From an uncultured Anaerolineaceae bacterium (GTDB lineage: Bacteria > Chloroflexota > Anaerolineae > Anaerolineales > E44-bin32): 64,000 bases of DNA. The notes below the pieces were generated by a model that saw only the letters and a list, made by a program, of their open reading frames with translations, did no database searches and was not told the DNA's origin. The stretch covers positions 21,266 to 85,265 of the forward strand of contig CAYMCO010000015.1 in the NCBI GenBank assembly GCA_964388955.1, given 5' to 3'. Position numbers and translations under genes: made by a program. Positions 3,564 to 29,546 of this stretch are shown here, piece by piece. Numbering within the stretch: position 1 is the stretch's first letter; every line of letters starts with the position of its first letter.

Positions 3564-4490
3564 TCATGCGCCCATGGCGCGGTCTAGAGACGGCTTGAGC
3601 AAAGCATAGATGGCTTGATGCACAGGCGCGGGCTGGTGATGCTCCTCCGCCAAGCGCACGATTGCCCCGCTGAAGGCCTCCAGTTCGAAAGGCCGACCGC
3701 TGGCGACATCCCGCTGCATGGATGACGTCGTTGCAGGCTCGAAGCTTTCCAGCAACTGCAGGGCGCGCCCCACAACATCCTTGGGAAGGGCGACCCCTTC
3801 CGCATGTGCTAGTGCCTCGATCTCTCGCATCGCGTTGATCAGCAATGCTCGGGTTTGCGGCACACTCAGGATCTCTCCGATGTTCGCGCGCGCCAGAGAT
3901 GATACGCCGCCAAAAGATGCGATGAAAAGAAACTTGGTCCAAATGTCTATGTAGATGTTCGATGAATGGATGGCATCCACTCCGCATTCCCGCCAGGCAT
4001 CGAGCAGAGGCGCGAGCCGCCGGCCCGGATGTCGATCCAGTTCGCCGGCCACGATCCGGCGCAACTGGCTTACCTGGCGGATTACACCGGGGCCCTCGAT
4101 CAGACTCGAGACACTGCAGAGGCCGCCAACCACGGAGGCGGAGCCCAGCGAAGAGAGCAGGATCTGATGCGCATCGATGCCATTGAGGAGCGGCAGAATG
4201 ACCGTCCGAGCCTCGACCAGTGGCTTCATCTGGGCGATCGCCTCGTCGAGTTGATAGCGCTTCACGGCCACGATCAGATAATCGACCGGGCCGATCTCCC
4301 CAGGATCATCTGTCGCTTTGACTCCCTCCAGACGAAAATCCCCGTGGGGGCTCTTGATCTGCAGGCCCCGCTCCCGAATGGCAGTCAGATGCTCACCCCG
4401 GGCGATAAAGGCGACATCATGATTCCCCTGAGCGAGCAGTCCGCCGAAATACCCGCCGACTCCGCCCGTCCCGAAGACCGCGATTCTCAT
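3564..4490 (-). CDS. 2-dehydropantoate 2-reductase family protein (ApbA/PanE)
   Basis: The N-terminus MRIAVFGTGGVGGYFGGLLAQGNHDVAFIARGEHL is a Rossmann GxGxxG motif, and length and overall pattern fit the ketopantoate reductase family. The start is set at ATG 4490 rather than the track start 4541. Confidence 0.75.
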   Translation of the reverse strand: MRIAVFGTGGVGGYFGGLLAQGNHDVAFIARGEHLTAIRERGLQIKSPHGDFRLEGVKATDDPGEIGPVDYLIVAVKRYQLDEAIAQMKPLVEARTVILPLLNGIDAHQILLSSLGSASVVGGLCSVSSLIEGPGVIRQVSQLRRIVAGELDRHPGRRLAPLLDAWRECGVDAIHSSNIYIDIWTKFLFIASFGGVSSLARANIGEILSVPQTRALLINAMREIEALAHAEGVALPKDVVGRALQLLESFEPATTSSMQRDVASGRPFELEAFSGAIVRLAEEHHQPAPVHQAIYALLKPSLDRAMGA

Positions 4491-4757
4491 CACTGCCTCA
4501 CAGATATGTTTGGATCGCTCAGTGATCAAATACCCAGACAAGGCAAGGGACCAACAAAGCCGCTGATGAAGCCGGCCATACGGACGATCCAGTGTTTCCT
4601 TCCAGCATTCCCACGCGTGCCAGCGGTATCCCGGCGATCACCTTGGCGCGCTGCTCTTCAGCGCCAGAGCGCGTCCGAGCAGCGCGACCGGCCATCGGCT
4701 GCCCGAGTTGCCCAGACATCGACCGGGCAGCATGGATCGAACTGATCGGGCTTCAGG

Positions 4758-5360
4758 CTACTTCTTCCCCTTGCGGCGCTCCGCCAGCGCTTGTTCGGCC
4801 GCCTTGCCATAGGCTGAACCGGGAAACGCATCCTGCGCGGCGCGAAAGTGCCGAACCGATCTCGCATCCTGGCCTAGCTGGCGGGAGGCGATCCCAAGGT
4901 TATATTCGCACGCGGCCCGGTAACGAATCCCCAGACCTCCCTGCTCGGATTCATCGAGAACCGAACTGAGTATGGCTTCAGCACTGGCGGGATTCTTGCG
5001 AAGAAGCTGTACGATCCCCATGTTGGTCAGCACTATCAGCCGGGTCTGCCGATCCGGGAAAAGACTCAGCGCGACCTGCAGGACTGCGATGGCGTCTCGC
5101 TGGCGCCCCCTCCCCGATAACAGATTTGCGATATCGGCGAGCAGGCGAGAGCGCATTGTGACCAGATAGATGAAGACCAAGAAGAGAATTGGATTGATGT
5201 TTGATCCGCTGACGAAACCCCCGCCAGACATGAGCAGGGTGATCGCAATGCCTTCCAAGGTGAATTGAAAGGAGATTCCCTCGCGTTTCAAATAGCCCAA
5301 GAACCCGAACAGAATTGTGTAGGCAAAACCCAAGACGATGATCATTAGATACTCATTCAT
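4758..5360 (-). CDS. membrane-anchored TPR-like protein
   Basis: The N-terminal half is hydrophobic (MNEYLMIIVLGFAYTILFGFLGYL..., about 3 TM). The C-terminal half is helical-repeat/TPR-like (AIAVLQVALSLFPD..., RYRAACEYNLGIASRQLGQDARSVRHFRAAQDAFPGSAYGKAAEQAL). It is the last gene of the ArsA-like operon. Confidence 0.6.
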   Translation of the reverse strand: MNEYLMIIVLGFAYTILFGFLGYLKREGISFQFTLEGIAITLLMSGGGFVSGSNINPILFLVFIYLVTMRSRLLADIANLLSGRGRQRDAIAVLQVALSLFPDRQTRLIVLTNMGIVQLLRKNPASAEAILSSVLDESEQGGLGIRYRAACEYNLGIASRQLGQDARSVRHFRAAQDAFPGSAYGKAAEQALAERRKGKK

Positions 5361-5428
5361 CAGATATCCTGATCCGCTGCCCTGGCCTCCAGATCTCCGG
5401 GGCAAAACACCGCAGTGCGCCCGAAGCG

Positions 5429-6406
5429 TCAGGCAAACAGATGGTCAGCCGTCCGCCGAAGCATCTCCAACCCGCGCACTTCTGTCTCGAACAGCGGGAC
5501 GATCGCCCGTACCGCCCCGTTGAAAGTGCTCTCAATCTCCCGCATATATTCCGCCTGCATGGCAACACGATTCCTGACGAATTCCGGCGAGTCCTGGGTC
5601 ACGCTTTCCCGATCGATCACCATATTCACGACAACGCCGCCGACCGGTATACCGAAGTCGCTGAACCAGTGGATGAAGCGGGTGATGACCGCGATCGGAA
5701 GAGCCTCCGGCAGGGTCACAAAGAAGAAGGCGGTCAGTGCGGGATTGGTAAGCAGTTTCTTGGCGTGTTCCATCCGCTGCCGAAAATTGAGCAGATACTC
5801 CATCAGGGGATCCTTCTGCTCCTTCTTCCTGCTGTAGGAGAGCATCTCGCGGAGCGATACAGCTTCCTCACGGCTCTTCATCATCTTATTGACCCACAGG
5901 GAATACACAGAGGACATTCCCAGCAGGCGGCGCGCGTTGGCCGTCGGGGCCGTATCAAAGACATACACATCATATTCATCTTCGAACATCAAGTCGATCA
6001 TGTTCTCGAACATGGCCGATTCTTCAAAGGCTGGGTTCATGGTGGCCGATTCGACGAACTCATCCGCCTTGGTCTTGATATCCGCGTACTTGAGGAACCA
6101 TCCGATCTTCTCTCGGATCTCCTTCTTGGATCGTTCAATCGTCTCGCGTGTATCGATTTCGTAGGCGATCAGATTCATCGCCTCGTCGACCGGAGTGGGC
6201 TTACCGAATATATCCATATCCAGAAGACTGGACAAGCTGTGGACCGGGTTGGTCGAGGCCAACAGGGTGCGCCTGCCCCGATTTGCGAACCACAACGCCG
6301 TAGCACCGGCGAGCACAGTTTTCCCGACCCCACCTTTACCCCCGAAGAACGCATACTTCAACTCCGGTTTTTCTCTCAAGAATTCCTGGGTGGACTTGAC
6401 GATCAT
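5429..6406 (-). CDS. ArsA/Get3-family P-loop ATPase (half-size, cysteine-free)
   Basis: It has the deviant Walker A FFGGKGGVGKT and the ArsA-type DTAPTANARRLL motif. The start is ATG 6406, 22 nt after the upstream stop. There is no cysteine in the whole protein. Confidence 0.8.
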   Translation of the reverse strand: MIVKSTQEFLREKPELKYAFFGGKGGVGKTVLAGATALWFANRGRRTLLASTNPVHSLSSLLDMDIFGKPTPVDEAMNLIAYEIDTRETIERSKKEIREKIGWFLKYADIKTKADEFVESATMNPAFEESAMFENMIDLMFEDEYDVYVFDTAPTANARRLLGMSSVYSLWVNKMMKSREEAVSLREMLSYSRKKEQKDPLMEYLLNFRQRMEHAKKLLTNPALTAFFFVTLPEALPIAVITRFIHWFSDFGIPVGGVVVNMVIDRESVTQDSPEFVRNRVAMQAEYMREIESTFNGAVRAIVPLFETEVRGLEMLRRTADHLFA

Positions 6407-6428
6407 GGCAACGCCCCTTCGCTCGCTC

Positions 6429-7427
6429 CTACGATATGCCAGATTTCGCCGGAACAGGTCCAAACATGGCCTCGGCCATTCTCTGGATCATCGGCAAACC
6501 TGTGATATCGCGCTCGAATTCGGGAATGTAGGCCAGGACTTCATCGCCGAACTGCGCCCGGATGCGATCCAGATGTGTCTCTTGCATCTCGATACGATTG
6601 CGCAGATAGGCGGGGATGGTCTCCTTGGCCAGTTCGGGAGGTATCACGCGATTGACGACATATCCGCATAACGGGACATCATACTTGGCAAAGAGACCGG
6701 CCGCTCTTGCCGTATCCCGCAGGGCCATTTCCTCCGGAACGATGACAAAGTAGAATGCGGTTTTTTTCCGGTCGGTCAGGATACTCGAGGAAGTGTTGAT
6801 GCGATGCTTGATGTCCTTCAATTCAATCAAGATCTGGTCCTCTTCGGTCATCTCCTCGCGTTTTATCAGAGAAGCGACTTTGGTATACTCCTCCATCTCC
6901 TGACGCAAGCGGGTGATCTTGTCAATCCACTCGTCATACACACTGGCCATGCTGAGATAGTAGAGCGCATGCCCCAGCGGGACCAGGTCATATATATAGT
7001 AGTCGTACTCCTCAGCCATAACGATGTCCACGACCTGATCGAAGATGGCGCTCTCCTCCATCGCCGGTTCCGCCGCTGCGGCCTGGATGTAATTCTCGAT
7101 CTCCTCCGGTATCTGCTCCATGCCATACATATCCAGAATCTTCTGCCGGATTTCCTGCTGGTACTCCCGGATGTGCTCATCCGCATCAATTTCCTGGGCG
7201 AAGAGGTTGGGAATGATCTCAACCGGCCCTCTTCCGAAAATATCCTGCTCGAAGATATCTGAGAGCGACGCCTGCGGGTCGACGGAAAACACAAGCACGC
7301 GATGCCCGGATTGGGACAGGTGATAGGCCGTGGCGGCCGAAAATGTGGTCTTCCCCAACCCCCCTTTGCCGCCGAACATGATATAGCGGCGATTGGGATT
7401 CTCTGCGAACATCTTTGCCAATGACAT
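6429..7427 (-). CDS. ArsA/Get3-family P-loop ATPase (half-size paralog)
   Basis: It has Walker A MFGGKGGLGKT and a DLVPLGHALYYL switch-like motif. The start is ATG 7427 with AGGAGG upstream. There is a single cysteine (PLCGYVVN), so no As(III) triad and no Get3 CxxC. Confidence 0.8.
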   Translation of the reverse strand: MSLAKMFAENPNRRYIMFGGKGGLGKTTFSAATAYHLSQSGHRVLVFSVDPQASLSDIFEQDIFGRGPVEIIPNLFAQEIDADEHIREYQQEIRQKILDMYGMEQIPEEIENYIQAAAAEPAMEESAIFDQVVDIVMAEEYDYYIYDLVPLGHALYYLSMASVYDEWIDKITRLRQEMEEYTKVASLIKREEMTEEDQILIELKDIKHRINTSSSILTDRKKTAFYFVIVPEEMALRDTARAAGLFAKYDVPLCGYVVNRVIPPELAKETIPAYLRNRIEMQETHLDRIRAQFGDEVLAYIPEFERDITGLPMIQRMAEAMFGPVPAKSGIS

Positions 7428-7440
7428 CCGGTCAGCCCTC

Positions 7441-7716
7441 CTAGGCCAGTGCGTCGGTGAGGTCCCTTTCACGCAGCATGCGGCGCTTCCAGGTTGAAAT
7501 CTGCGGGACGACATAGGGCAGCAGACGGAGTGAATAGTAGGGGGGCAGTATGGGGACCCCCAGCAGGTCTCCCATCGTGATCAAGATGAAGAGATGCTCC
7601 ATGCTACCGCGCGTCTTCAACGCAAAGCGGGTCATATCGTGGCCGGCCATCCCATAGATGAATTGCACCACGGATTCGGCAATTCTTCTGATCCGGCTGC
7701 GCTCTTCTTCGGACAT
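7441..7716 (-). CDS. small conserved protein, paralog 1 (PPYY block), unknown function
   Basis: 91 aa with GGAGG upstream of ATG 7716. The C-terminus is GDLLGVPILPPYYSLRLLPYVVPQISTWKRRMLRERDLTD. It is a paralog of 7878..8174. Confidence 0.7.
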   Translation of the reverse strand: MSEEERSRIRRIAESVVQFIYGMAGHDMTRFALKTRGSMEHLFILITMGDLLGVPILPPYYSLRLLPYVVPQISTWKRRMLRERDLTDALA

Positions 7717-7877
7717 TTACTAGCCTCCATTGTGTTGGACTTCAAACGCACTGGTCTGCCTTCGCGGTCCTCGTTCTCCCTCATCATCAAGGCAAGGCCG
7801 CGATGGGCCTATGGCTTGGCTGTCCCGGCCCTCTGGCACGCGCCGCTTGCACAGCGCGCTCGGGCGGTGGATTCGGC

Positions 7878-8174
7878 TTAGCCGATCTCCTGGTCTATGA
7901 GATCCGTAAGATCCCTCTCCCGCAGCATACTCCTGCGCCAGTTCTCAAAGCCAGGTATGAGATACGGGAGCAGCCGCAGCGTATAGTAGGGCGGCAGGAT
8001 AGGGATCCCCAGGAGATCTCCGTACACGATCAGCGAGAAAAGGCGATCCTCTTCGCTTCGCGCCTTTTGCAGCTCGCGCGCCCAATCGTAGATCGTCATG
8101 CCATAGAGCACTTCGCGGACCGTCCTGGATGCTTTCCTGGTCAGGGCCAGGAACCGCTCTGCTACAAGATTCAT
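7878..8174 (-). CDS. small conserved protein, paralog 2 (PPYY block), unknown function
   Basis: 98 aa counted from ATG 8174, chosen by alignment to paralog 1. The C-terminus is GDLLGIPILPPYYTLRLLPYLIPGFENWRRSMLRERDLTD. The track start at 8207 is a TTG without an SD. Confidence 0.65.
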   Translation of the reverse strand: MNLVAERFLALTRKASRTVREVLYGMTIYDWARELQKARSEEDRLFSLIVYGDLLGIPILPPYYTLRLLPYLIPGFENWRRSMLRERDLTDLIDQEIG

Positions 8175-8296
8175 CGCTATTGGATGTTTTCTCGACTCCC
8201 CCGGCAATCCGTTTCACAGATCAAGCGTCGTTCACAAATGCGTGGCATGCTCCTATCTGCAGGATTCTGGGCTCTCAGCATCTCCGCTTTCGTTGC

Positions 8297-8695
8297 CTAC
8301 CTCGCCGGAGCCTGATGCGGATGCCGCTGTTCCGACAAGCACTCCTGCAACAAATGGTCAAGGGCATTTCGCTCCCAACCGGCATACAGCATGCGCCCCT
8401 CCACGACGAACGCCGGATATTCGCGCACTCGATGTCGCAGCGAGAGGACAAAACCCTGGAGCGATTGCGGATCCACTACCTGAATTCTGAGCTGATTCCG
8501 AAAGCGCCTAACCAGATCCTCCAACCATTCGGCAAGCCTCGAGGCGTCCTGAAGAATAGCCTGCGGATACTCCTCCAATTGCTCGCGATGGACCTGCCCG
8601 CCGATGCCCGCTTGCACGAAGAATTGCTCGCAATGCGGGCAGTGAAAGAAGCCGGTTGGGATCGGTGCGATTACTCGCAGGTCTATGCCGGACAT
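8297..8695 (-). CDS. thioredoxin-fold protein with CPHC motif (ArsD-like topology)
   Basis: MSGIDLRVIAPIPTGFFHCPHCEQFF... followed by ...LRIQVVDPQSLQGFVLSLRHRVREYPAFVVEGRMLYAGW. This gives a beta strand, a CxxC motif and a later xPxF-V-V-x-G segment, as in thioredoxin/ArsD-type folds. It is the first gene of the ArsA-like operon. Confidence 0.5.
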   Translation of the reverse strand: MSGIDLRVIAPIPTGFFHCPHCEQFFVQAGIGGQVHREQLEEYPQAILQDASRLAEWLEDLVRRFRNQLRIQVVDPQSLQGFVLSLRHRVREYPAFVVEGRMLYAGWERNALDHLLQECLSEQRHPHQAPAR

Positions 8696-8866
8696 CGCCA
8701 AATACCCTCTCAGAAATTCTGGGGGTGAGTTTGGTTCATGAATGCCCCCAACCCACCCCCAGATCCTGCGACAAATCGGCTCGACCGCGCAGGAAACCAG
8801 CTTTGCGGCGCGCCTCCTATCTAGCAGTTGGCCATTCCCTCAATAGCCGAAGGCTGCCTTGGAACC

Positions 8867-10585
8867 CTATGCAGCTTCGGCTGGCCTGGCCTGTCTTGCC
8901 TGGCGAAGCGCCTGGGCGCCGTCCCACACCAAGATCAGCGCGGCCACCACCAGCACGAGGCAGATGATGCCGATCAGCGCCGAGGCCACAGCGGCCTGCG
9001 CAGTCTCCGCCGCGGGCAGCTTCTGAACCAGGTTGACATAAGCGACATAGAGTAGAGCGGCGAGATCTGTGACGATCATGAAGATCGCAGGGTAGAGAGC
9101 CCAAGTATGTCTTCGGCCCTCGGACAGCAACCACAGCGAGACCAGCAGCAGAGCCAGTCCGGCCATGAGTTGGTTGGCAGCTCCAAATGCCACCCAGATC
9201 GTCAGCCAGGGGATGATCCACACAAACAGCGCGGTCAAGGCCAAGGCGATGAGGCTGCCCACATGAACATTCTTCAACGCTGGCACGCCGTCACCCAGCA
9301 TTTCAGAGCTGGCTACGCGCATGAAGCGCACCACCAACTGCATGATCGTTATGGCCATGATCGTCAGGAAGACCGAGCCATAAGCCACGCCGAACCCCTG
9401 TGGGACCCCGATATGGCTCAGGAAGCTGGCCAAACCCCCAGCGAAGACCGCCAGCGCCGCCCCAGCACCACCCGCATCCAGGAACCCTTGCCAGCCGCCA
9501 AATGCCACAGTGGCGGTCAGAAAGGCCATGACGGCGAATGCGGCTTCCATGAACATCGCACCGCCACCCACGGGCAGAGCGTCAGTCTCTTTCTCCAGTT
9601 GGCGGGCGGTGCCCGAGGTGGACACCAAACTATGCCAGCCCGAGATCGCACCGCAGGCGATCGTCACAAAGAGCATCGGCCAGAGTGGGCCTGCCGCAGC
9701 AGTGAAACCTGTAAAGGCCGGGAAGTCGCCCATGCCCGGGTGCCAGATCACCAGCCCAACCAAGCCGCCGATCATGCCCAGTGTGACGATCCAGAAGGAG
9801 ACATAGTTGACCGGTTGAGCGAATGACCAGATTGGAAGCACTGAGCCCAGATAGCAGAAGGCCAGCATGAGCAGCGTGCCAACAACCGCCGCTTGGGTAT
9901 TCCCCAAGAAGACAACGGGCGATTCCGCGCCACCGTACAGGCTGGAGAAGATATTGGAGACGGCCGGTAGCGTCCCAACCCAAATGCCCACAAAGGTCAG
10001 AACGACTGTAATAATACTGGTCAGGATGATGTCCTGCTTCCACCTGTACGTCATCTGACCGGCGATCACGCCCATCAAAACCAAGCTGATCATCCCGAAT
10101 GGGACCTGCGGTTTGACCATCAACGCTTTGCCGACAGCGTTCCCGAACGCTCCCATGATCAGCAGCAGATAGAAGTAGATGAAGATCAGCAGAATGCTGC
10201 GGGCGCGCGGGGAGATCAGCTTGTAGCTGAGCGCGCTCATTGTCTCGCCCTCACGGCGCACGCCCATGATCAAGGATCCGTAGTCCTGGACCCACCCGAT
10301 GAAGAAAACGCCCAGCAGGATCCACAACAGTGCCGGCAGCCAACCCCACTGAACGGCTACGATAGGGCCGGTCAATGGAGCCAGCGCGGCGACGGACTTG
10401 AACTGATAGCCAAAGAGGACATTCCGGCTCGCAGGAGTGAAGTCCACACCATCCATGTACATTTTGGCCGGAGTGGCTTTTGTGTCGTTGGGCTGGACGA
10501 TATCCTTATCAATTCTACGTGCGTATACCCCATAGCCGATACCGATGCCGAGTGCTGCAAGAATCACAATGATTAACGAATTCAT
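8867..10585 (-). CDS. cstA: carbon starvation protein A family transporter
   Basis: MNSLIIVILAALGIGIGYGVYARRID...FTPASRNVLFGYQFKSVAALAPLTGPIVAVQWGWLPALLWILLGVFFIGWVQDY is the characteristic CstA N-terminus. AAGGAGGATGG lies upstream of ATG 10585. Confidence 0.85.
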   Translation of the reverse strand: MNSLIIVILAALGIGIGYGVYARRIDKDIVQPNDTKATPAKMYMDGVDFTPASRNVLFGYQFKSVAALAPLTGPIVAVQWGWLPALLWILLGVFFIGWVQDYGSLIMGVRREGETMSALSYKLISPRARSILLIFIYFYLLLIMGAFGNAVGKALMVKPQVPFGMISLVLMGVIAGQMTYRWKQDIILTSIITVVLTFVGIWVGTLPAVSNIFSSLYGGAESPVVFLGNTQAAVVGTLLMLAFCYLGSVLPIWSFAQPVNYVSFWIVTLGMIGGLVGLVIWHPGMGDFPAFTGFTAAAGPLWPMLFVTIACGAISGWHSLVSTSGTARQLEKETDALPVGGGAMFMEAAFAVMAFLTATVAFGGWQGFLDAGGAGAALAVFAGGLASFLSHIGVPQGFGVAYGSVFLTIMAITIMQLVVRFMRVASSEMLGDGVPALKNVHVGSLIALALTALFVWIIPWLTIWVAFGAANQLMAGLALLLVSLWLLSEGRRHTWALYPAIFMIVTDLAALLYVAYVNLVQKLPAAETAQAAVASALIGIICLVLVVAALILVWDGAQALRQARQARPAEAA

Positions 10586-11215
10586 TGGGCCATCCTCCTT
10601 TTGCCGTTCTGCAAAGGAACTCGACATGATCCATCTTGTGAATTAATCCATCAGATAGGCATTCTCCTTTCTTCCGGGCGGTCCAAAGCGGGCCGGGTCG
10701 AAATTGCATCAGCTCTCAAGGAGCGTGAACGCCCGGCGCCCGGAATTCAGGTGTCTCCCAATCTCAGCTCTACTTGTCAGAATCTTGATACCAACTTGCC
10801 CAGGAGTCGATCACACACGAGATAGCGGGGAGCCAACCGCGTGTGAGTTGAGGGTGGTGAACAAACGGCGAGTCTATTGAAGGAGGAATGGCCTGCTCAT
10901 CGCCCAGTGCCCCCGCTTTTCCGGCCTGGCCAACCAACTCACTCGATCGCCCGAAGCCGGCCCTGGACACATCTCTCGGACCCCTCGCCCCCCATGCGTC
11001 TCCGCCGGGATGCCCGGAGAACAGCCTTTGGCATCTCCCATAATATGCCCATTGACGTCGATTCGCAAATTAATTCCGAGCTTCACAAACTGCGCGCGCG
11101 CTTTACCTCCGCGCTTAGATATGTCTGGACCTCTCCCTCCATCCGGTCCCCCCCAATCTCCCAAGGACCGCGATGACAACCATTCGGCCAGTCGGTCTGC
11201 TTGACCGTTGAGGTC

Positions 11216-11680
11216 TCAATAGGCGTACGCTTTCACGACGGCCTTCCCCATTACGGGGTCCAGCGTGCCCAACGCCCAAAGCTGCAGCCTGTTGAGCCAT
11301 CTATATTCTTCGCAAGAGGTGAATAGGGACACCGCGGCCCTGAGTTGAGCTTCTCTTTCGCCTTCGATTTGTCGTGAGACCCCCTGTGATGAGAATGCGA
11401 TGTTCGCACCATCCTCGGTCGTGACGCGGGCGTGAAGGTGAAGTTGGAACAGGCCGTCGGCGCGCACATACAGATAGTCGGTCCCAGAAATCCTGCCACG
11501 CAGCCTGGGTCCCATGAGGTCGCCCTCGAAGGCTTGATCGAACCGCGCCCCCTCCAACGGAACCTCCGCATTTCGCGAGGACAGCTCTTCCATGCTTACC
11601 CCATATTCGATCGTCTGGGTAAACTGAATCTGCGCCTCGTAGATCAATTCACCTTCGGAGGAGATTTGCATCCGGGTCAT
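11216..11680 (-). CDS. DUF3237-like (UPF0311) protein
   Basis: 154 aa. The pattern GARFDQAFEGDLMGPRLRGRISGTDYLYVRADGLFQLHLHARVTTEDGANIAF matches what I remember of DUF3237 beta-barrel proteins. Confidence 0.55.
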   Translation of the reverse strand: MTRMQISSEGELIYEAQIQFTQTIEYGVSMEELSSRNAEVPLEGARFDQAFEGDLMGPRLRGRISGTDYLYVRADGLFQLHLHARVTTEDGANIAFSSQGVSRQIEGEREAQLRAAVSLFTSCEEYRWLNRLQLWALGTLDPVMGKAVVKAYAY

Positions 11681-15018: not shown

Positions 15019-16001
15019 TTAGTCCCCTTTCAACGTGAGGACGACTTTGCCTCGAGCATGACCCTTTCTGTAGTAGTCGATCGCCTCCGCGATCTCATTT
15101 AGCGGGTAGCAGCGGTCGATCACGGATCTGACCTTCCCCGCTTCAATGAGGTCCTTCAACTCCACCAGATTATCCTTCGTGATCTCCAAGATGAGATTGC
15201 CCACCTTCTTGGATCCTCTCATTGAAATCAACGGTGCCAAGAACATCGGTTGGAAAACTTGGGCCATGGAACCCCCCGTCACAACGTAACTTCCATCCGG
15301 CTTCAAGGCACGCGCATAGTCGAAGATCGAGCGGTATCCGGCGGTGGCGAGTATCAGGTCATATCGCTGACCAATCTCGACAAAATCCTCACGCGTGTAA
15401 TCGATGACATGGTCCGCACCAATGGACCGCACCAGGTCCAGATTCTTGGTGCCGCACACGCCAGTCACTTCAGCCCCGAACGCCTTTGCGATTTGCACCG
15501 CGTAGGTCCCGATCCCCCCGAGGCCCCGACAATCAAGACTTGCTCTCCCGCCTGGATTCCGCCTTCATCGCGCAGCCCCTGCAAAGCGACGGCCGCCGCT
15601 TCGGGCACAGCCGCCGCCTCCTCAAAGGTCATGTTGGAGGGCTTCAAGCCCAGGACATCCTCCGGGACGGCGACGTACTCTGCATATCCGCCGCGACCGC
15701 AATCCGATAGGTCCCCGTAGACCGCGTCTCCCGGCGCAAATTGCGTCACGCTTTTGCCCACCGTTTCCACTTGCCCGGCGATGTCCGTTCCGAGGGTCCG
15801 ATACGCCGGTCTGAGGAGACCAGCGCCCATCAGGCGAACGATGAACGGATCCCCACTCACGAAAGCCGCATTGGAGTAGTTCACGGAAGCTGCATGAACT
15901 CTTACAAGGACCTCATCATCCGCGGGGACAGGTCTTTCGACCTCCTGAAGCTCAAGGACATTCGCCGGTGGACCATATTCCGTATACACGACCGCTTTCA
16001 C
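15019..16001 (-). pseudogene. MDR-family NAD(P)H quinone oxidoreductase, split by a -1 frameshift in a C6 run
   Basis: ORFs 15465..16001 (MKAVVYTEYGPP...VLIVGASGG) and 15019..15498 ([16 protein letters not shown]...) are the two halves of one gene. The expected GASGGIGTYAVQIAK is restored by adding one C to the run at 15514..15519. Confidence 0.75.
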
Positions 16002-16242
16002 ACAGCACCTCCTGATCGCGCAGAATTGCTTGATACCAGTTCGGCAGACCGGCCGGCAGCCTTATGAATGCTTCCACCTGCCGGACGCATCGCTAGGGCG
16101 AGGCCGGTGCGCCGGTGTATCGAGCAGGGCTGTCTTACAACACTCGGTCTACTATAATGCCACCCGTCCAGCGATCGGGCACAGGATGCCCCGCCTGTAC
16201 GATCGTTGAAGAGAATCCTATCGAGTGGACATGGACGCATCA

Positions 16243-16929
16243 TTAATTGATCTCCGATCCCGGCTCTATGCCCTTTATCATCAGCCAGGGCCCGATCAAG
16301 AACTCAAATACCATGTACGGGGCCCCAAAGTAGATGATCACCCCCACGTCAGGGTTATACAGCCCCCATAGGACGTTGATGGATAGCAAACACAATGCGG
16401 CAAGGCCCCAAATGGAGAGGACCCGCGGGATCGCCTTCGATTTGACGAACAGGAAATACCAGAGGATCCCTCCCAGACAGAAGAACAGCATATGCAGGCT
16501 CCAGCCCTGTCGATCAATCCCATGATAGAGAAAATCGCCCAGCGTCTGATAGAAGGACGAAGCGGGCGCGCCCGCCGCCTGGAAATCCATGCTCAGTGGG
16601 ATCAGCGCATAGGCCCCCAGCTTGCTCAGCCCGAGGATGATGCCCTCCGCCAACCACCACCCGAAGGCCACGGTGGCGATGACCCGATACCGCTTGCGAA
16701 ATACGGCATAGAGCAAGGCTGCGAGCGCCACGATGCCGACGCTGGTAACCAGTTCGATCAGAATGCTGATCCGCATCAGGGTAAGGTTCTCCGGGATATT
16801 GGCAAGGATCTCGCTGATGCTGCCGGATCCGATCGCGGAAGTCAGAAGGGGATTGCTGATCATACTGGCTAGGAATACCAGCAGAAACGCCCCGCCCAAG
16901 AGCCTGATGGTATTGCGATCTGTGTTCAT
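16243..16929 (-). CDS. DUF4386-like membrane protein
   Basis: MNTDRNTIRLLGGAFLLVFLASMI...FFCLGGILWYFLFVKSKAIPRVLSIWGLAAL...FEFLIGPWLMIKGIE. GAGGAGGA lies upstream of ATG 16929. Confidence 0.7.
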   Translation of the reverse strand: MNTDRNTIRLLGGAFLLVFLASMISNPLLTSAIGSGSISEILANIPENLTLMRISILIELVTSVGIVALAALLYAVFRKRYRVIATVAFGWWLAEGIILGLSKLGAYALIPLSMDFQAAGAPASSFYQTLGDFLYHGIDRQGWSLHMLFFCLGGILWYFLFVKSKAIPRVLSIWGLAALCLLSINVLWGLYNPDVGVIIYFGAPYMVFEFLIGPWLMIKGIEPGSEIN

Positions 16930-17211
16930 TTCGTCCTCCTCTGATTCCGGGGGCATTCCCCCCGGTATGGTAAGGGTCTCTCTGTCTGCGGCCGCTCTAT
17001 TCAGCCCAACCCAATCGCGGCTCGCTGACTTCGGCCGGAACCGCTGCTAGGTCTCGGCCATGAAGACAAGATTGTCAATCGCGTCCCTTGATCCCCTGCT
17101 CCCGAGTTGGTCGTACTCTCCGCATAAGACTTGGACGCTACGTGGAGCGGGAGGCCCCCTCACCGGCAACACGGCCCCGTTCACATCCAGCATAATCGGC
17201 GCAATGCCGCA

Positions 17212-18498: not shown

Positions 18499-19431
18499 TC
18501 AGCGGCCATTCACCACCGCTATGGCCACGTTCCCCACCTTGTGCCCCTTTTCGACATACCGGTGAGCCTCGATGATCTCATCCAAAGGGTAGCGTCGATC
18601 GATAACCGTCCTGAGCTCCCCCGCTTCGACCAACTCCCTCAGGAAATCAAGATATCCTTCATCCAGATCTTTACCAGCTCCGGAGTCCCGCCCGACCGCG
18701 AGGTAGGTCCCCCCAGCTTTCTGCGCCATCCTCGCCAGGGATGGCTTGAGCTTGTCTACGGCGTCGAATATCACATCATAGTTGGCGGCGGGGAGAGAGA
18801 AATCCTCCTTTGTATGATCCAGCACCTGACTGGCCCCAAGGGAGCGGACCAGATCTAGATTTCTCCTGCTGCATACTCCGGTCACCTCCGCTCCAAAGTG
18901 TTTGGCGAGCTGGACAGCGAATGTGCCCACGCTCCCTGATGCGCCGTAGATCAAGACCTTCTGCCCCGGCCGAATGTCCCCCTTCCGAAGCACAATCAAC
19001 GCGGTCAGGCCCCCACCGGCGAGCGGGGCCGCTTCTTCGTAGCTCGCGTTCGCCGGTTTGATGGCCACCATGCCCTTCTTTGTGCCCCCGCCCCTTTCAG
19101 GCAGACAGATATACTCGGCGTAAGCGCCAAAACCAAAACCAGCGAAGGCAAAGACCGGATCTCCGAGTTGAAATCGCTTTGCCTCCGGGCCCATGGCCTC
19201 CACATCTCCGGCCAACTCAAGCCCGAGTATGGGGATCTTTCTGGGGCGGAAGAGGCCGTTGACCAGCCTTGCCAGGAATGGATCCGGTTTTCGCATGCGG
19301 ATATCTCCGACATGGGCCGTGGTGGCGTGGATCTTCACCCGGATTTCATGCGCCTTGGGCTCTGGCCTTTCCACGTCTTTGAGCTGAAGGACCTCCGGTG
19401 GGCCGTAGTGCTCATATACGACGGCTTTCAT
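18499..19431 (-). CDS. MDR-family NAD(P)H quinone oxidoreductase (zinc-free alcohol dehydrogenase-like)
   Basis: [25 protein letters not shown]...[37 protein letters not shown] lies upstream of ATG 19431. It is a paralog of three other genes in the window. Confidence 0.85.
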
Positions 19432-19476
19432 GCGGACATGCCTCCCCAAGGGTGCTCATCCATCGGTCATCGCAGG

Positions 19477-20169
19477 CTAGTATCCCGCCGCTGGAGCGGG
19501 CTGCGGGGCGAGCGGCGCGGGACTGAAGCCTCTCACGATCAGCCACACGCCCAGGAACAATTCATTCAACAACATGACAAACCCCAGATTTGGCAGGCTC
19601 ACTCCGAAGATCTCGAAGAGGGTATTGGCGAGCACGACCACGGCGCCCAGGAGCCCCCAGATGGAAATAAATCGGGGAACCAGCCTGAGTCGGAACAGCA
19701 TGCCGTAGAACAGCAGCGCCCCGCAGCCCAACGTAATCGAGACCATCTGAAACGCCCACGCGCGCTGTGCCAGCAGCGCAGCGCCGACGGTCTGGGCGGA
19801 GGGCTCAATGGCGGCTCCAAGGCCCACAGCCCCCTCGCTCACCGTCAGCAGGGCTAAGGGTGCGAGATCGGATAGGATCTGCATGACGAACTCGACGATC
19901 CGAAAGCCGATGTATCCGAGCGCCAGGCTCTCGAATCTCCCTTTCAGCACGGGGAACATGTAAACGGCGATGCCCAAGTATGCAAAGGCGTTGACGATCT
20001 CCAGCAGGGCGCCGACGACCAGCTTCGATCGATTTGCAGAAATCAGCGTGAGGTAATCCGGGGCGCTGAGGAGGGGTTCGAGGAAGACTATCGCCCCCAC
20101 CAAAAAGACGACGTTGGAAATGATAAAGAAGGAACCGACCAGCCTGGCAGTACGTCTGCCCGAATTCAT
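19477..20169 (-). CDS. DUF4386-like membrane protein
   Basis: MNSGRRTARLVGSFFIISNVVFLVGAIVFLEPLL...ALLFYGMLFRLRLVPRFISIWGLLGA...NELFLGVWLIVRGF. Confidence 0.7.
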   Translation of the reverse strand: MNSGRRTARLVGSFFIISNVVFLVGAIVFLEPLLSAPDYLTLISANRSKLVVGALLEIVNAFAYLGIAVYMFPVLKGRFESLALGYIGFRIVEFVMQILSDLAPLALLTVSEGAVGLGAAIEPSAQTVGAALLAQRAWAFQMVSITLGCGALLFYGMLFRLRLVPRFISIWGLLGAVVVLANTLFEIFGVSLPNLGFVMLLNELFLGVWLIVRGFSPAPLAPQPAPAAGY

Positions 20170-21202: not shown

Positions 21203-22171
21203 TTAGCCCACCGTGAGGACCACCGCCCCTATCTTCCGCCCGGATTCGACATACCTGTGGGCCTCGTCGGCCTGTTCGAGGGGAAAGGACCGATCAACGA
21301 CCGATTTCAGTTCTCCCGCCTCCATGAGCTCTTTGAGGAATATCAGCTCTTCGGTTTTCACTTCCAAGAGCCCGATAATCATCCTCTGGCTGGCCCTGCG
21401 CCGGTACCATAGAATCTGCAGGAGCCTTGGGAGACCAAAGGTTGTGAAGAGATAGTATCCGGACTCCGCCAGCGATCTCCTGCTGCGTGAGATTGCGGTC
21501 TTGCCCACGGTGTCCAGGATCACGTCGTAGGTCTGCCCATTTCGGGTGAAATCCTCTCTAGTATAGTCAATGACCTCATCCGCTCCCAAGGATTTCACGA
21601 ACTCCGCTTTGGGGCCGCTGCACACGCCGGTCACCTCGGCGCCCAAATACTTGGCGAGCTGTACCGCCGCACTGCCCACCCCACCGGATGCGCCGAAGAT
21701 CAGGGCTTTTTGCCCATTCCGGATATTTGCCTTTCTCAAGAAATGCAAAGCCGTCAATGCCCCTTGAAGGACGCTGGCGGCTTCTTCATAACTCACGTTG
21801 GCCGGCTTCAGTGCGGCAGCAGACTCGGGCAGACATGCGTACTCGGCATAGGCGCCGTACCTCATCCCAGGATAGCCAAATATCGGATCCCCCACCGTGA
21901 ACCGTCCCACATCCTCTCCAACGGCCTCCACCTCCCCCGCCAGCTCTGTCCCGAGGATGGTCGCTCTTGGTCTGATCAAGCCCGAACCTATTCGGCTGAG
22001 CAGCCACATCCCGGGAGGCGCCGTGGAACTGCGCATCCAGCAATCGAATTTCGTCGCCGAGGTGGCATACACTCTGACAAGTAGTTCATCTGGCTTCGGG
22101 ATCGGTTTGTCCACCTCCTTGAGCTGCAGGACTTCCGGAGGGCCGTATCGTGTGTACGCAATCGCCTTCAT
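21203..22171 (-). CDS. MDR-family NAD(P)H quinone oxidoreductase
   Basis: [25 protein letters not shown]...[36 protein letters not shown] lies upstream of ATG 22171. Confidence 0.85.
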   Translation of the reverse strand: MKAIAYTRYGPPEVLQLKEVDKPIPKPDELLVRVYATSATKFDCWMRSSTAPPGMWLLSRIGSGLIRPRATILGTELAGEVEAVGEDVGRFTVGDPIFGYPGMRYGAYAEYACLPESAAALKPANVSYEEAASVLQGALTALHFLRKANIRNGQKALIFGASGGVGSAAVQLAKYLGAEVTGVCSGPKAEFVKSLGADEVIDYTREDFTRNGQTYDVILDTVGKTAISRSRRSLAESGYYLFTTFGLPRLLQILWYRRRASQRMIIGLLEVKTEELIFLKELMEAGELKSVVDRSFPLEQADEAHRYVESGRKIGAVVLTVG

Positions 22172-22249
22172 GAGGATTCCTCGCTGCTTCGGTTCCATCT
22201 ACTCATCCCGGGCCTCGGAGGAGTACGCATACCCGAGAAGGGATCCAGG

Positions 22250-27863: not shown

Positions 27864-28814
27864 TCACATCTCGATGATGAGTTTGCCTTGAGTGTGCCCC
27901 CCTGCAAGTTGGTGCAGAGCGGATGGGAGCTCAGCGAGAGTATAGCACCGGCCAATCCACGGTCGGATTCTACCCCTCTCAAGGAGTTCTTTGATGATTC
28001 CGAGGTCCCCCTTGGTCGGCCGCTTTGGCTGCAGCGGCACCATCCTTCTGCCGGCACGCATGGACCGGATCCTTCCCACCACGGCAAGGGCTGGAGTGAA
28101 CTCGGTCGTGATAAAGACGCCATGGGGCCTGAGGGCGCAGCGGCATTCGGCGAACGTGCGCTTCGCGGCGACATCAAAAATGAGGTCATAGCGCCCGCCG
28201 TCTTGGGTGAAGTCGTCTTGTGTGTAATCGAGGGCGTGGTCCGCGCCCAACTCCTGCACCATTTCGAGATTGTCAGTGCTGCACACACCGGTCACCTCGG
28301 CCCCGTAGGATTTCGCAATCTGCACTGCGAAGCTCCCCACGCCACCGGATGCCCCGTTGATCAGGGCCTTCTGCCCCTCCCTGATCGCCCCCACGTCCCG
28401 CAGCGCGTGCAGGGCTGTGGAGGCTGCCGCCCCAACAGCCGCAGCCGCCTCGAAGGTCAAACCCCCCGGTTTGAGCTGGATTTCATCCCTTTTGACACAC
28501 GCATATTCGGCAAAGCACCCGTTGCCGGTGGACCCGAAAACCTCATCTCCCGGCTGGAAATCGGTTACACAGGGCCCAGCAGCCTCGACCCGCCCGGCCA
28601 AGTCTATCCCCAGCACCTCGTGCTTCGGCTTGAAGAAACCGGCCATAATACGCGTGATAAATGGTGACCCGGTGAGGAAGTGCCAGTCGAGCCAGTTGAC
28701 GGAAGCGGCATGGACTTTGACCAGGACCTCATTGACATCGACGGAGGGTACATCGATTTCCTGGAGCCGGAGCCCTTCGGGGGGGCCATACCTATCGTAG
28801 ACCATTGCCTTCAT
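27864..28814 (-). CDS. MDR-family NAD(P)H quinone oxidoreductase
   Basis: MKAMVYDRYGPPEGLRLQEIDVPS...[30 protein letters not shown]. It is the fourth paralog. Confidence 0.85.
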   Translation of the reverse strand: MKAMVYDRYGPPEGLRLQEIDVPSVDVNEVLVKVHAASVNWLDWHFLTGSPFITRIMAGFFKPKHEVLGIDLAGRVEAAGPCVTDFQPGDEVFGSTGNGCFAEYACVKRDEIQLKPGGLTFEAAAAVGAAASTALHALRDVGAIREGQKALINGASGGVGSFAVQIAKSYGAEVTGVCSTDNLEMVQELGADHALDYTQDDFTQDGGRYDLIFDVAAKRTFAECRCALRPHGVFITTEFTPALAVVGRIRSMRAGRRMVPLQPKRPTKGDLGIIKELLERGRIRPWIGRCYTLAELPSALHQLAGGHTQGKLIIEM

Positions 28815-28865
28815 GGCGTTGCCGTGCCTTTCCCATTGGAGCCCTGCTTCAGCCTCAATCGCTCT

Positions 28866-29546
28866 TCAGACGGCACTCTCCCGGATACCGAAGATCACGA
28901 GGTAGAAGCCCAAAATCAGTTCGAAAGCGACCATGGGCAACATCATGACCATGTTGGCGTTCTCTGGCAGATCGACGACCAATGCCAAGACAGAACCCAG
29001 AGCGAACACGACAGCACTGGCTACCCCGTAGATGGCCAGGGCGACGGGGATTACCCGGCCCTTGAGGAACAAGTAGTTGTTGAACAGGCTACCAATTGAC
29101 AGGAAGACGAAGGAAGTCCAGACAGCCAACGTCGACGCAGCGATGAGAATCTGGCCAAGAATCTCGACATCCCCCATCCCGGCCGCGGACGATGTGATGG
29201 CTGAACGGCCCAATGTCAGCACCAGGTAGTCCGGAATCTTCGCCCCCGCCTGGAGCACAACCTCCGCGATCCGCCATCCCAAGGCAAGGAGGGCTAAGTA
29301 ATGGTTGATGGGTCTCAGGACGACGTACAGCGAAAACGCCAGGGACATGACCGCGACCATGGCCAAGAAATCGATCGAGACGGCCGTCCGATATTGGACT
29401 GCGTTGGCTGCCACGAGGCCGAGAGTGCTGGGGATATCCGCTGCGTTGATAAGCTTACCCTTGAGCGCCAAGTTGGCCACAAGAAAAGCCAACACAGTCG
29501 ATACATAGAGCGCACCAGTAATCCTGGAAACTCGCTTCCGGTCCAT
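28866..29546 (-). CDS. DUF4386-like membrane protein
   Basis: MDRKRVSRITGALYVSTVLAFLVANLAL...FLSIGSLFNNYLFLKGRVIPVALAIYGV...FELILGFYLVIFGI. AGGAGG lies upstream of ATG 29546. Confidence 0.7.
   Translation of the reverse strand: MDRKRVSRITGALYVSTVLAFLVANLALKGKLINAADIPSTLGLVAANAVQYRTAVSIDFLAMVAVMSLAFSLYVVLRPINHYLALLALGWRIAEVVLQAGAKIPDYLVLTLGRSAITSSAAGMGDVEILGQILIAASTLAVWTSFVFLSIGSLFNNYLFLKGRVIPVALAIYGVASAVVFALGSVLALVVDLPENANMVMMLPMVAFELILGFYLVIFGIRESAV

Follow-up and report, generated by a model that had tools for sequence, protein, structure and literature searches.

Twin ArsA/Get3-fold ATPase genes from an Anaerolineaceae bacterium as accessories in a probable cstA-led operon conserved in Chloroflexota

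Known partners of ArsA/Get3-fold ATPases and of CstA carriers

The metalloid-binding cysteines of ArsA, the ATPase of the arsenite pump, are Cys113/172/422. In Get3, an ATPase of the same fold, the D57N replacement leaves ATP bound with no hydrolysis; the archaeal Get3 proteins of structures 3ZQ6 and 3UG6 bind tail-anchored proteins in vitro. BagAB is a heterodimer of two paralogues. CstA, in turn, carries pyruvate in E. coli and peptides in other bacteria. In E. coli, pyruvate is imported by CstA together with a small protein, YbdD (PMC5847655).

Castillo and Saier (Int J Microbiol 2010:187373; PMC2963123) brought these families together by describing 26 operons that join cstA to an arsA homologue, 24 of which also encode a protein of ~90 aa called CstX. 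CstX was never found without CstA, and the trees for CstA, CstX and the ATPase were congruent. Neither arsR nor any other ars gene was reported from these operons. The ATPase was proposed to energise CstA, with CstX as the linker. Paired ATPases were noted in Pyrobaculum arsenaticum and Symbiobacterium thermophilum, and paired CstX proteins in P. arsenaticum and Thermococcus kodakarensis. The survey had no CstA-linked ATPase from Chloroflexi, whose entries fall in other clusters (PMC2963123). The locus described here is no orphan system, but an instance of this cstA-cstX-arsA-homologue association, predicted from genomes in 2010.

Gene order and conservation of the locus

The window, meaning the whole 64-kb stretch of DNA analysed, had received a first-pass annotation that placed six co-directional genes at 4758-8695. 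A check of the open reading frames found all six there, on the minus strand. The decisive context had been missed. Directly upstream, 171 bp away on the same strand, lies the gene for a CstA-family transporter. The features are as follows.

8867..10627, minus strand: cstA, CstA-family (TC 2.A.114) membrane transporter, cluster head gene (Pfam CstA, E 3e-113)
8297..8695, minus strand: Trx-like, thioredoxin-fold accessory protein, 132 aa (profile match, AF2 model, Foldseek)
7878..8174, minus strand: cstX-A, A-type DUF7990 small protein (small A), 98 aa (Pfam PF25952/DUF7990)
7441..7716, minus strand: cstX-B, B-type DUF7990 small protein (small B), 91 aa (DUF7990; 77/77 loci)
6429..7427, minus strand: ATPase 2, single-domain ArsA/Get3-fold P-loop ATPase, 332 aa (Pfam ArsA_ATPase, E 5.5e-71)
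5429..6406, minus strand: ATPase 1, single-domain ArsA/Get3-fold P-loop ATPase, 325 aa (Pfam ArsA_ATPase, E 7e-68)
4758..5363/5405, minus strand: predicted membrane-anchored TPR protein (TPR_12, E 5e-7)

Synteny is strongly conserved. Across 80 related loci, almost all from Chloroflexota, the gene order hardly varies (cstA, Trx-like, small A, small B, ATPase 2, ATPase 1), and cstA adjoins the other genes co-directionally in 65 of the 68 loci where this could be tested. The conserved unit extends past 8695, and cstA belongs to the cluster. The small-protein family does co-occur with paired ArsA-like genes; small B was found in 77/77 testable loci, ATPase 2 in 70/70 and ATPase 1 in 64/65. The Trx-like gene was detected in 55/74. 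The TPR gene, present in 41/47 testable loci, lies downstream of ATPase 1 in 24 and divergently upstream of cstA in 17; it is an accessory that changes side of cstA yet stays with the cluster. The same gene context surrounds more distant DUF7990 members. Variant clusters adjoin genes for pyruvate:ferredoxin oxidoreductase or 2-oxoacid dehydrogenase, neighbours that hint at the substrate of CstA. Taken together, the six genes appear to make up the accessory half of an operon that cstA heads and that is conserved in Chloroflexota.

The six genes had also been called closely spaced. This is true of the run from small B through ATPase 2 and ATPase 1 to the TPR gene (gaps of 13, 22 and 65 bp), but not of the upstream genes, where 171 bp separate cstA from Trx-like, 122 bp Trx-like from small A, and 161 bp small A from small B. 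These gaps of 120-170 bp count against the proposed operon, within which co-transcription with cstA is a prediction.

Small B exceeds all other proteins of the cluster in conservation, with a mean pairwise identity of 84% (minimum 75%) and ~70 residues that are at least 90% conserved. The two ATPases average 78-79%, CstA 66% and small A 58%. Thus small B, whose gene ends only 13 bp before that of ATPase 2, and both ATPases are more conserved than the transporter itself, a pattern that we read as the probable signature of a stable complex. Most apparent fusions between small A and small B, and between the two ATPases, are frameshift or read-through artefacts, and they lend the proposed stoichiometry no support.

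Features of the encoded proteins

Profiling assigns the ATPases to the ArsA/Get3 family and the small proteins to DUF7990. Identity between the two ATPases is 35%, and both exceed the cut-off of TIGR00345 (GET3/ArsA/TRC40), ATPase 2 with 235 bits against 135. Their P-loops read GGKGGVGKT (ATPase 1) and GGKGGLGKT (ATPase 2). Beyond the P-loop, they diverge in complementary ways. ATPase 2 retains the Switch I Asp (SVDPQASL) and has a changed Switch II (YDLVPLGHALYYLS; DLVPLGHA). ATPase 1 has Asn in place of the Switch I Asp (STNPVHSL) and a Switch II that reads DTAPTANARR. These losses align with the Switch I and II motifs of Get3; in ATPase 1 the Asn stands opposite the Switch I Asp in its nearest solved structure, archaeal Get3 3ZQ6 (E 1.4e-52). 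The nearest for ATPase 2 is archaeal Get3 3UG6 (E 2.5e-61). The motifs are kept in 66 ATPase-1 and 73 ATPase-2 sequences.

The pair had been described as nearly free of cysteine. Indeed, ATPase 1 has none and ATPase 2 has one, at residue 254. The same holds for most orthologues, with no cysteine in 52/66 for ATPase 1 and 63/73 for ATPase 2; poverty in cysteine is a family trait. In alignments to the Get3 structures, neither ATPase has a cysteine at the position of the CxxC zinc motif.

Over 79 aa the small proteins share 54% identity, and neither has a cysteine. The core motif of small A is LFxLxxxGDxLGxPxLPPYYxLRLLPY. Small A has a precomputed Pfam assignment (PF25952/DUF7990) and a variable C-terminal tail; its match to NCBIfam NF041419, "cory-CC-star" (E 2.6e-12), lies under the cut-off. 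In size and position, the DUF7990 proteins match the CstX of Castillo and Saier. They have no detectable relationship to YbdD (PF04328; hhalign probability 0.9%). An AF2 model (pLDDT 76) gives helix-break-helix-helix. Hydrophobicity is modest (KD-19 maxima of 1.42 and 1.59, both below 1.6), the core includes a conserved Asp, an Arg and 4-5 Pro, and the C-proximal hydrophobic stretch is followed by only 16-20 residues. These proteins do not look like classical tail-anchored clients.

The Trx-like protein, an identical copy of which exists in public data, has CPHC at residues 19-22. This was taken to be DsbA-like, in a protein with the layout of the ArsD metallochaperone. Neither suggestion is supported. 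Among 44 orthologues only C-x-x-C-E is invariant at the motif, with CMHC, CLAC, CLSC and CQSC as variants; the invariant residues are C19, C22, E23, D75, P76, Y93 and P94. The family profile (A3) matches thioredoxins (E 4e-4). An AF2 model of low confidence (pLDDT 58) has a beta-alpha-alpha-beta-alpha-beta-beta-alpha order, and the best 50 PDB matches that Foldseek finds with it are all thioredoxins. ArsD is absent from these 50 and from the profile matches. The protein is cytoplasmic, and no signal peptide is evident. Natural fusions of it to an A-type small protein occur in the canonical context on 4 contigs, which come from at least 2 samples.

The TPR protein has 2-3 N-terminal hydrophobic segments (KD-19 maximum 2.13) and is predicted to be membrane-anchored, with its TPRs in the cytoplasm. 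The longest reading frame of cstA encodes 586 aa (572 aa in the public gene call); the product has many hydrophobic segments and, within the N-terminal 370 aa, shares 32% identity with E. coli CstA.

Possible function and comparison with known systems

The ATPases had been supposed to be ArsA-fold proteins recruited to a different job, and this view holds. The arsenic and zinc cysteines are missing, there is no ars context, and the small proteins belong to the same job. Almost certainly, the two work as a heterodimer in a role other than arsenic. From the gene content, motifs, synteny and conservation, we infer physical contacts among the products and a coupling of ATP to transport. The favoured reading, to which we attach about an even probability, is an ArsAB-like, ATP-coupled CstA with a seven-gene operon (cstA, Trx-like, cstX-A, cstX-B, ATPase 2, ATPase 1, TPR). 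As a secondary carrier, CstA would here transport small carbon compounds. The two CstX proteins, each made of two helices joined by a Pro-rich turn and moderately hydrophobic in its core, would pair on its cytoplasmic face and dock an obligate heterodimer of the ATPases. ATPase 2, with its catalytic Switch I Asp, would hydrolyse ATP, and ATPase 1, with Asn, would bind ATP but hydrolyse it poorly. Closing and opening of the dimer, driven by nucleotide, would be relayed through CstX to CstA. The carrier would thereby take up scarce carbon in a manner coupled to ATP, or gated by it, much as ArsA makes a pump of ArsB. The CxxCE protein may provide a redox or assembly input on CstX-A, and the TPR protein may be a scaffold.

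Two observations sit less easily with an ATP-coupled CstA. For both ATPases, the closest relatives of solved structure are Get3 proteins from archaea, not ArsA, and the C-proximal hydrophobic segment and short tail of the small proteins formally fit a Get3 client. These same facts (E 1e-52 to 1e-61 for the structures; a TIGR00345 score above cut-off; the 16-20 residue tail) would be expected if the heterodimer chaperoned the CstX hairpins, or segments of CstA, to the membrane, with ATP spent on assembly rather than transport. The TPR protein would then be a receptor or co-chaperone; the eukaryotic GET pathway has membrane receptors as well as Sgt2, a TPR protein. However, the hydrophobic stretch falls below the threshold for a transmembrane helix, a PxxPP turn interrupts it, and an Asp and an Arg within it are invariant; the tail that follows carries strong charge. 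Over its full length, polar ends included, small B is near-invariant, which better fits a permanent subunit with many partners than a passive client. The CxxC zinc motif is missing, and it would be uneconomical for one operon to devote two ATPases to a pair of 95-aa clients. Get3-style handling of the small proteins is thus a live rival, but an unlikely one, and ATP-coupled transport is favoured over it. We also think it improbable that the cluster is an energy-state or redox switch, in which the ATPase pair responds to ATP/ADP and the CxxCE protein to redox state, and both act through CstX to open or close a CstA that is still driven by protons. A conserved Asp-to-Asn change in one subunit is what a binding-only site would have, dimers of the SIMIBI class are often nucleotide switches, and the thioredoxin-fold protein is both linked to the cluster and found fused to CstX-A. 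But the other subunit keeps all of its catalytic motifs, and the Trx-like gene goes undetected in about a quarter of loci. At the level of sequence, of course, gating and energising look the same.

An arsenic role can be set aside with far more assurance. The Pfam domain is named "anion-transporting ATPase," and ArsD is likewise thioredoxin-like in fold; one might therefore imagine a divergent arsenite/antimonite pump ATPase, a true ArsA, with its membrane partner elsewhere and with the Trx-like protein as its metallochaperone of ArsD type. This reading is effectively refuted. Against the ArsA equivalog TIGR04291 the ATPases score 100-107 bits, where the cut-off is 650; most orthologues lack any cysteine; and ArsD is missing from both fold and profile matches. 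A Pfam scan of the ~48 largest non-overlapping reading frames of the window found no ArsB, Acr3/SBF, ArsC or ArsR, bearing out what the first-pass annotation had said, and no ars gene is among the called genes of related loci having Pfam tables. Nor were ars genes seen in the cstA operons surveyed earlier (PMC2963123). One distant locus (L092/L093) has a weak SBF-family match upstream of cstA.

Among known systems, BagAB (Mycobacterium tuberculosis Rv3679/Rv3680) and NosAFP/Get3d are likewise bacterial Get3/ArsA-fold ATPases with non-arsenic roles, but they have a different gene context, and their NCBIfam models give 43-67 bits here against cut-offs of 325-521. Get3/TRC40 and archaeal Get3 (3ZQ6, 3UG6), the closest proteins of solved structure and alignable over the full length, are also dimeric, single-domain SIMIBI ATPases. 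In contrast, an obligate heterodimer of 35%-identical paralogues is proposed here, with no CxxC zinc clasp, with one subunit the apparent equivalent of the hydrolysis-dead D57N, and with genes operonic with a polytopic transporter. The ArsAB pump (E. coli R773 ArsA/ArsB, with ArsD) has the same ATPase fold and P-loop and two non-equivalent nucleotide-binding halves, and its ATPase on a secondary carrier is our working analogy. There, one fused ArsA of ~590 aa does what two half-size genes would do here. In ATPase 1 the Switch II signature keeps its DTAPT core, whereas ATPase 2 has DLVPLGHA; the metalloid-binding cysteines are missing, the equivalog score is far under cut-off, the partner is CstA rather than ArsB/Acr3, and a pair of small proteins would be the adaptor.

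E. coli CstA-YbdD and BtsT-YjiX also pair a CstA-family carrier with a conserved small protein, cytoplasmic or peripheral, that transport needs (PMC5847655). E. coli has no ATPases in this role, and the CstA of the window is without the long C-terminal part of its E. coli counterpart. Closest of all are the cstA-cstX-(cstY)-arsA-homologue operons, where cstA is likewise followed by small proteins of ~90 aa and single-domain ArsA homologues of ~330 aa. The 2010 survey does not describe the Trx-like CxxCE protein, the TPR membrane protein, the asymmetry of the ATPases or the extreme conservation of a CstX paralogue (PMC2963123). Newly described here, then, are two conserved accessories, an ATPase pair that is fixed and asymmetric across relatives, and the extreme conservation of small B.

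Gene order in the cluster and its relatives

An operon of six co-directional reading frames at 4758-8695 had been described in the first-pass annotation, and these are present on the minus strand as it described them. It overlooked cstA, which lies immediately upstream in the same orientation. The source is an Anaerolineales metagenome-assembled genome, in which the cluster, from upstream to downstream, holds the following genes.

8867-10627, minus strand: cstA, a CstA-family transporter (Pfam CstA, E 3e-113), directly upstream of the thioredoxin-like gene
8297-8695, minus strand: thioredoxin-like protein, 132 aa, CPHC at residues 19-22
7878-8174, minus strand: small A, 98 aa, no Cys
7441-7716, minus strand: small B, 91 aa, no Cys
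6429-7427, minus strand: ATPase 2, 332 aa, single-domain P-loop ATPase, one Cys
5429-6406, minus strand: ATPase 1, 325 aa, single-domain P-loop ATPase, no Cys
4758-5363/5405, minus strand: TPR protein, ~201-215 aa, hydrophobic N-terminal segments followed by TPRs

The two small proteins are paralogues sharing 54% identity across 79 aa, the two ATPases share 35%, and the transporter is 32% identical to E. coli CstA across the N-terminal 370 residues. Gaps of 171 bp (cstA to the thioredoxin-like gene), 122 bp (to small A) and 161 bp (small A to small B) separate the upstream genes. Rfam gave no match within 4000-11500, and promoter and terminator scans around the cluster did no better than on shuffled sequence. 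A PanE/ApbA reductase gene (3564-4541) directly follows the TPR gene.

A pattern scan limited to a single genome of each species turned up relatives of the small proteins at no fewer than 587 loci; in the best 80 of these, open reading frames were called and then searched with the window proteins. Nearly all 80 are from Chloroflexota (Anaerolineae, Thermoflexia, Caldilineae and Chloroflexia). The first-pass annotation had staked its operon on conserved synteny, and this is what the 80 loci display: with hardly an exception, the genes run cstA, thioredoxin-like, small A, small B, ATPase 2, ATPase 1.

Conservation of the cluster genes. Presence is counted over best-80 loci having enough flanking DNA to be testable; mean pairwise identity was computed over 25 complete loci.
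cstA: 65/68 loci; identity 66%
Thioredoxin-like: 55/74 loci; identity 42%
Small A: identity 58%
Small B: 77/77 loci; identity 84%
ATPase 2: 70/70 loci; identity 79%
ATPase 1: 64/65 loci; identity 78%
TPR protein: 41/47 loci; identity 43%

The ranking is unusual, as small B (the putative adaptor) and the ATPases are under tighter constraint than the carrier CstA. The membrane TPR protein is a conserved part of the Chloroflexota cluster, and its gene moves: in 24 loci it lies 3' of ATPase 1, and in 17 it is divergent, beyond cstA. Because it relocates yet stays with the cluster, it is good evidence that cstA is part of the unit. Synteny suggests, further, that cstA is co-transcribed with the rest.

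Some of the related loci carry features of their own. About a third (~26/80) have an extra accessory gene, whose product of ~210-225 aa has a single hydrophobic helix at the N-terminus and matches nothing in Pfam; the gene lies on the opposite strand after ATPase 1/TPR or before cstA, and has no counterpart in the window. Examples, all on the minus strand, are L003:13540-14214, L086:7318-7965 and L088:7323-7952. Two of the closest loci, both with full synteny, come from records titled Candidatus Zixiibacteriota (L007, small A 74% identical) and Actinomycetota (L015, 61%); these labels may reflect bin contamination or recent transfer.

Elsewhere in the window are four DUF4386 membrane-protein genes, three of which each adjoin a zinc-type alcohol dehydrogenase gene, and two large regulators.

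15019-16956, 18499-20169, 27864-29546, 50025-50804 (also 21203-22198): DUF4386/alcohol dehydrogenase regions
23549-26338, 30528-33290: two ~920-aa MalT-like LuxR regulators
15019-15498 and 15465-16001, minus strand: overlapping ADH_N and ADH_zinc_N reading frames of one split zinc-dehydrogenase gene

The DUF4386, dehydrogenase and LuxR genes look like a locally amplified module, with no role assigned. The split dehydrogenase is also two genes in an independent Logan assembly; a real frameshift or a pseudogene is more probable than an assembly error.

The encoded proteins

Both ATPases belong to the GET3/ArsA/TRC40 superfamily. They match TIGR00345 over their full length (235.5 bits for ATPase 2 and 216.3 for ATPase 1, where the cut-off is 135) and Pfam PF02374 (ArsA_ATPase) at E 5.5e-71 and 7.1e-68, respectively, with deviant Walker A sequences GGKGGLGKT in ATPase 2 and GGKGGVGKT in ATPase 1. 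The Switch motifs, which align to those of Get3, are partly degenerate in complementary ways. ATPase 2 retains the Switch I Asp (SVDPQASL) and has a changed Switch II (DLVPLGHA; YDLVPLGHALYYLS). ATPase 1 has Asn for the Switch I Asp (STNPVHSL) and keeps DTAPT, with ANA replacing GHT (DTAPTANA). The Walker A and Switch I/II patterns are kept in 66-73 orthologues. In yeast Get3, the D57N replacement blocks hydrolysis, not binding. The Asn of ATPase 1 is its equivalent and, by this analogy, it is reasonable to regard the pair as combining one catalytic site with one binding-only site.

The ATPases had been described as nearly free of cysteine, and the description extends to their relatives: the window proteins have 0 and 1, and 52/66 ATPase-1 and 63/73 ATPase-2 orthologues have none. 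Where Get3/TRC40 proteins carry the CxxC of the inter-subunit zinc site ('CDFCRAR' in 3UG6, 'CEFCNAR' in 3ZQ6), the two ATPases read 'ETIPAYLRNR' and 'DSPEFVRNR', neither with a Cys.

The small proteins are assigned to PF25952 (DUF7990) in public precomputed annotation. They appear to be related to the NF041419 'cory-CC-star' family, yet to lie outside it: they score 46.6 and 33.6 bits, where the cut-off is 80 (best E 2.6e-12), and their C-termini have no Cys-Cys. When 1.84 billion representatives were searched exhaustively with a profile, 434 clusters came out at E <= 1e-3, with the core LFxLxxxGDxLGxPxLPPYYxLRLLPYxxPxxxxWKRxxLRE common to every member. Each locus always has two types, A and B. 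The B type is near-invariant, with ...DLTDALA or ...DAMF at its end. The A type varies, and its tail differs by lineage (...DQEIG in the window, ...HEHHLHGL, ...LIEGID). Distant relatives keep the same genomic context, and every DUF7990 context long enough to judge contains cstA or the ATPases. No DUF7990 homologue was found on annotated plasmids. Their size (91 and 98 aa) and their position between cstA and the ATPase genes suggest that the DUF7990 proteins are the 'CstX' of an earlier genomic study (Castillo and Saier, 2010; PMC2963123).

Two observations concern the types separately. Some 70 residues of small B (7441-7716) and its orthologues are near-invariant across several Chloroflexota classes, which is unusually high conservation for a 91-aa protein without an assigned function. 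A large A-type subfamily (P0320, P0276, P0339, P0317 and others among the public proteins) carries a His-rich tail, ...DEH[DE][YH]HL[HE]G[LVI], in contrast to ...DLIDQEIG in the window; this tail could be a metal- or pH-sensitive element.

What shape might such proteins take? In an AF2 model built for a tandem A-B protein (pLDDT 76, pTM 0.33), each unit consists of a helix of ~45 residues, an interruption at the PxxPP turn and two shorter helices, with no confident packing between units. Since the fusion modelled may also be a product of read-through, nothing beyond the local fold was used. Kyte-Doolittle maxima over 19 residues (1.42 and 1.59) fall just under the usual transmembrane threshold, and the hydrophobic core holds invariant Asp and Arg and several Pro. 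The proteins may form a hairpin, re-entrant or interfacial, whose polar ends both face the cytoplasm. A search for structural analogues in the PDB gave no match below E 2. Homology to E. coli YbdD was considered and rejected (hhalign probability 0.9%, and no Pfam Sel_put match even at E 10); what had prompted the comparison was a presumed GMxxYDxxV resemblance.

The protein containing CPHC had been likened to the ArsD metallochaperone and to DsbA. Both identifications were rejected. The Pro and His vary freely in 44 orthologues (CMHC, CLAC, CLSC, CQSC, CTSC and others); what is invariant is C-x-x-C-E, D-P-x-S and Y-P. Only the two Cys of C-x-x-C-E are conserved, and the Cys12-Cys13-Cys18 site of ArsD is absent, as is ArsD itself from the PDB profile matches and the Foldseek top 50. 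The protein is, from profile and model, predicted to adopt a thioredoxin-like fold. Its family profile aligns with thioredoxins over the alpha2-to-alpha4 region (E 4e-4), placing YP at the cis-Pro site, and an AF2 model built with three sequences, used for topology only (pLDDT 58, weak), has the thioredoxin-like order of secondary structures and only thioredoxins among its Foldseek top 50.

In four contigs from at least two samples, this protein is naturally fused to an A-type small protein within an otherwise canonical cluster. Of the fusions weighed as evidence on stoichiometry, it alone stands. In L088 (8001-10622), the 'ArsA-ArsA' protein of 690 aa and the 'CstX-CstX' protein of 180 aa contain frameshifted stretches rich in Arg and Ala; P0274, P0031 and P0124 seem to result from read-through or from chimeric calling; and the CstA-CstX 'fusion' P0201 has no such gene on record, its unfused twin overlapping the cstA stop by 4 nt. 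Many public 'fusions' in this family (P0275 and P0238 along with P0274, P0031, P0124 and P0201) are frameshift, read-through or chimeric calls, recognizable by out-of-frame stretches rich in Arg and Ala or by the loss of a tail. Where domain fusions are inferred from catalogues of metagenomic proteins, the underlying DNA needs to be checked.

How the parts might work together

The genes very probably form a CstA-linked module. What the ATPases do for the carrier is less certain; that ATP is coupled to transport we would put slightly below an even chance. The mechanism favoured overall, at about even, borrows from ArsA-ArsB. Here, the CstX pair would anchor the ATPase heterodimer on CstA, and nucleotide-driven motions of the dimer would energise or gate uptake.

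Neighbouring genes bear on the substrate. In L086/L087, a variant cluster is directly followed by genes for ferredoxin and a four-subunit pyruvate/2-oxoacid:ferredoxin oxidoreductase (PFOR; L086:10755-13482); in L088, another is followed by genes for an acyl-CoA synthetase and 2-oxoacid dehydrogenase E1/E2 (L088:10695-15655). Such neighbours may hint at what is transported, and point to pyruvate/2-oxoacids or peptide-derived carbon. A fuller picture, offered tentatively and judged less likely than not, is of a hybrid primary-active importer. In it, the CstA carrier would be turned into a pump that uses ATP to scavenge pyruvate, 2-oxoacids or peptides, driven by an asymmetric ArsA/Get3-fold heterodimer (one catalytic, one regulatory site), docked through CstX-A/B hairpin adaptors and modulated by a thioredoxin-fold CxxC sensor.

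Other assignments for the ATPases deserve weighing. Archaeal Get3 proteins are their closest relatives in the PDB, which favours a Get3-like chaperone that handles CstX or assists assembly of CstA; however, the small proteins are not like transmembrane segments and are conserved throughout, and we consider this unlikely. If it were true, the module would be a dedicated bacterial membrane-protein targeting system. Rather unlikely too is a pure nucleotide or redox switch, for which the binding-only site proposed for ATPase 1 and the invariant CxxC would be the candidate elements.

A true arsenic pump is scarcely credible. A Pfam scan of about 48 of the largest reading frames in the window agreed with the first-pass annotation in finding no ArsB/Acr3, ArsC or ArsR, and found no arsD; nor do ars genes occur among the called genes of those related loci that have Pfam tables. 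(The distant locus L092/L093 has a weak SBF-family match upstream of cstA.) ArsA itself is a two-domain protein of ~580 aa with three metalloid-binding Cys, whereas the window ATPases are single-domain proteins of 325 and 332 aa with 0 and 1, and they score 100.1 and 107.1 bits against the 650-bit cut-off of the ArsA equivalog TIGR04291. The system is real, strongly conserved and not related to arsenic.

Returning to the ATPase-driven carrier, its interest is general. CstA-family carriers are widespread and poorly understood, with their energisation and the role of their small partners unsettled even in E. coli. The Chloroflexota parts list is rigid and complete: a carrier, two adaptors, catalytic and degenerate ATPase subunits, a CxxC protein and a TPR anchor. 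Such a list makes a clean system for reconstitution, in which a 16-year-old genomic prediction, that ArsA-like ATPases drive some CstA carriers, becomes directly testable. Were it true, the design of ArsAB, in which a soluble SIMIBI ATPase is attached to a secondary carrier, would be found to serve nutrient uptake as well as metalloid efflux. ArsAB would no longer be the sole case of a carrier energised by this ATPase fold, a nutrient would for the first time be the substrate, and DUF7990 would gain a function.

Comparison with known CstA systems

In E. coli, CstA imports pyruvate with the small protein YbdD (PMC5847655). The closer precedent is genomic. Castillo and Saier (2010) found cstA linked to a single-domain ~330-aa ArsA homologue in 26 bacterial and archaeal operons, with a ~90-aa 'CstX' in 24 of the 26 and never without cstA (PMC2963123). 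The trees for CstA, CstX and the ArsA homologue were congruent and ars genes were never present, and in these authors' proposal CstA is energised by the ATPase, CstX serving as the coupling subunit (PMC2963123). Searches of the literature on CstX, DUF7990, cory-CC-star, and Get3/ArsA with carbon starvation found no follow-up to that paper.

The window likewise has a single-domain ~330-aa ArsA homologue by cstA and no ars genes. Its duplications also have forerunners: the earlier survey saw adjacent pairs of ATPase genes in Pyrobaculum arsenaticum and Symbiobacterium thermophilum, and CstX duplicated in two archaea (PMC2963123). It also reported a ~210-aa 'CstY' with a single transmembrane segment in five archaea (PMC2963123), which the extra accessory protein of the related loci resembles in size and in its single segment.

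We would class the cluster as the Chloroflexota form of the CstA-CstX-ArsA-homologue transporter module predicted earlier, with further conserved components. What is new in this form is the fixed asymmetry of the ATPase pair, its lack of cysteines, the ranking of conservation, and the thioredoxin-fold and membrane TPR proteins; the association of cstA with an ArsA homologue is not new.
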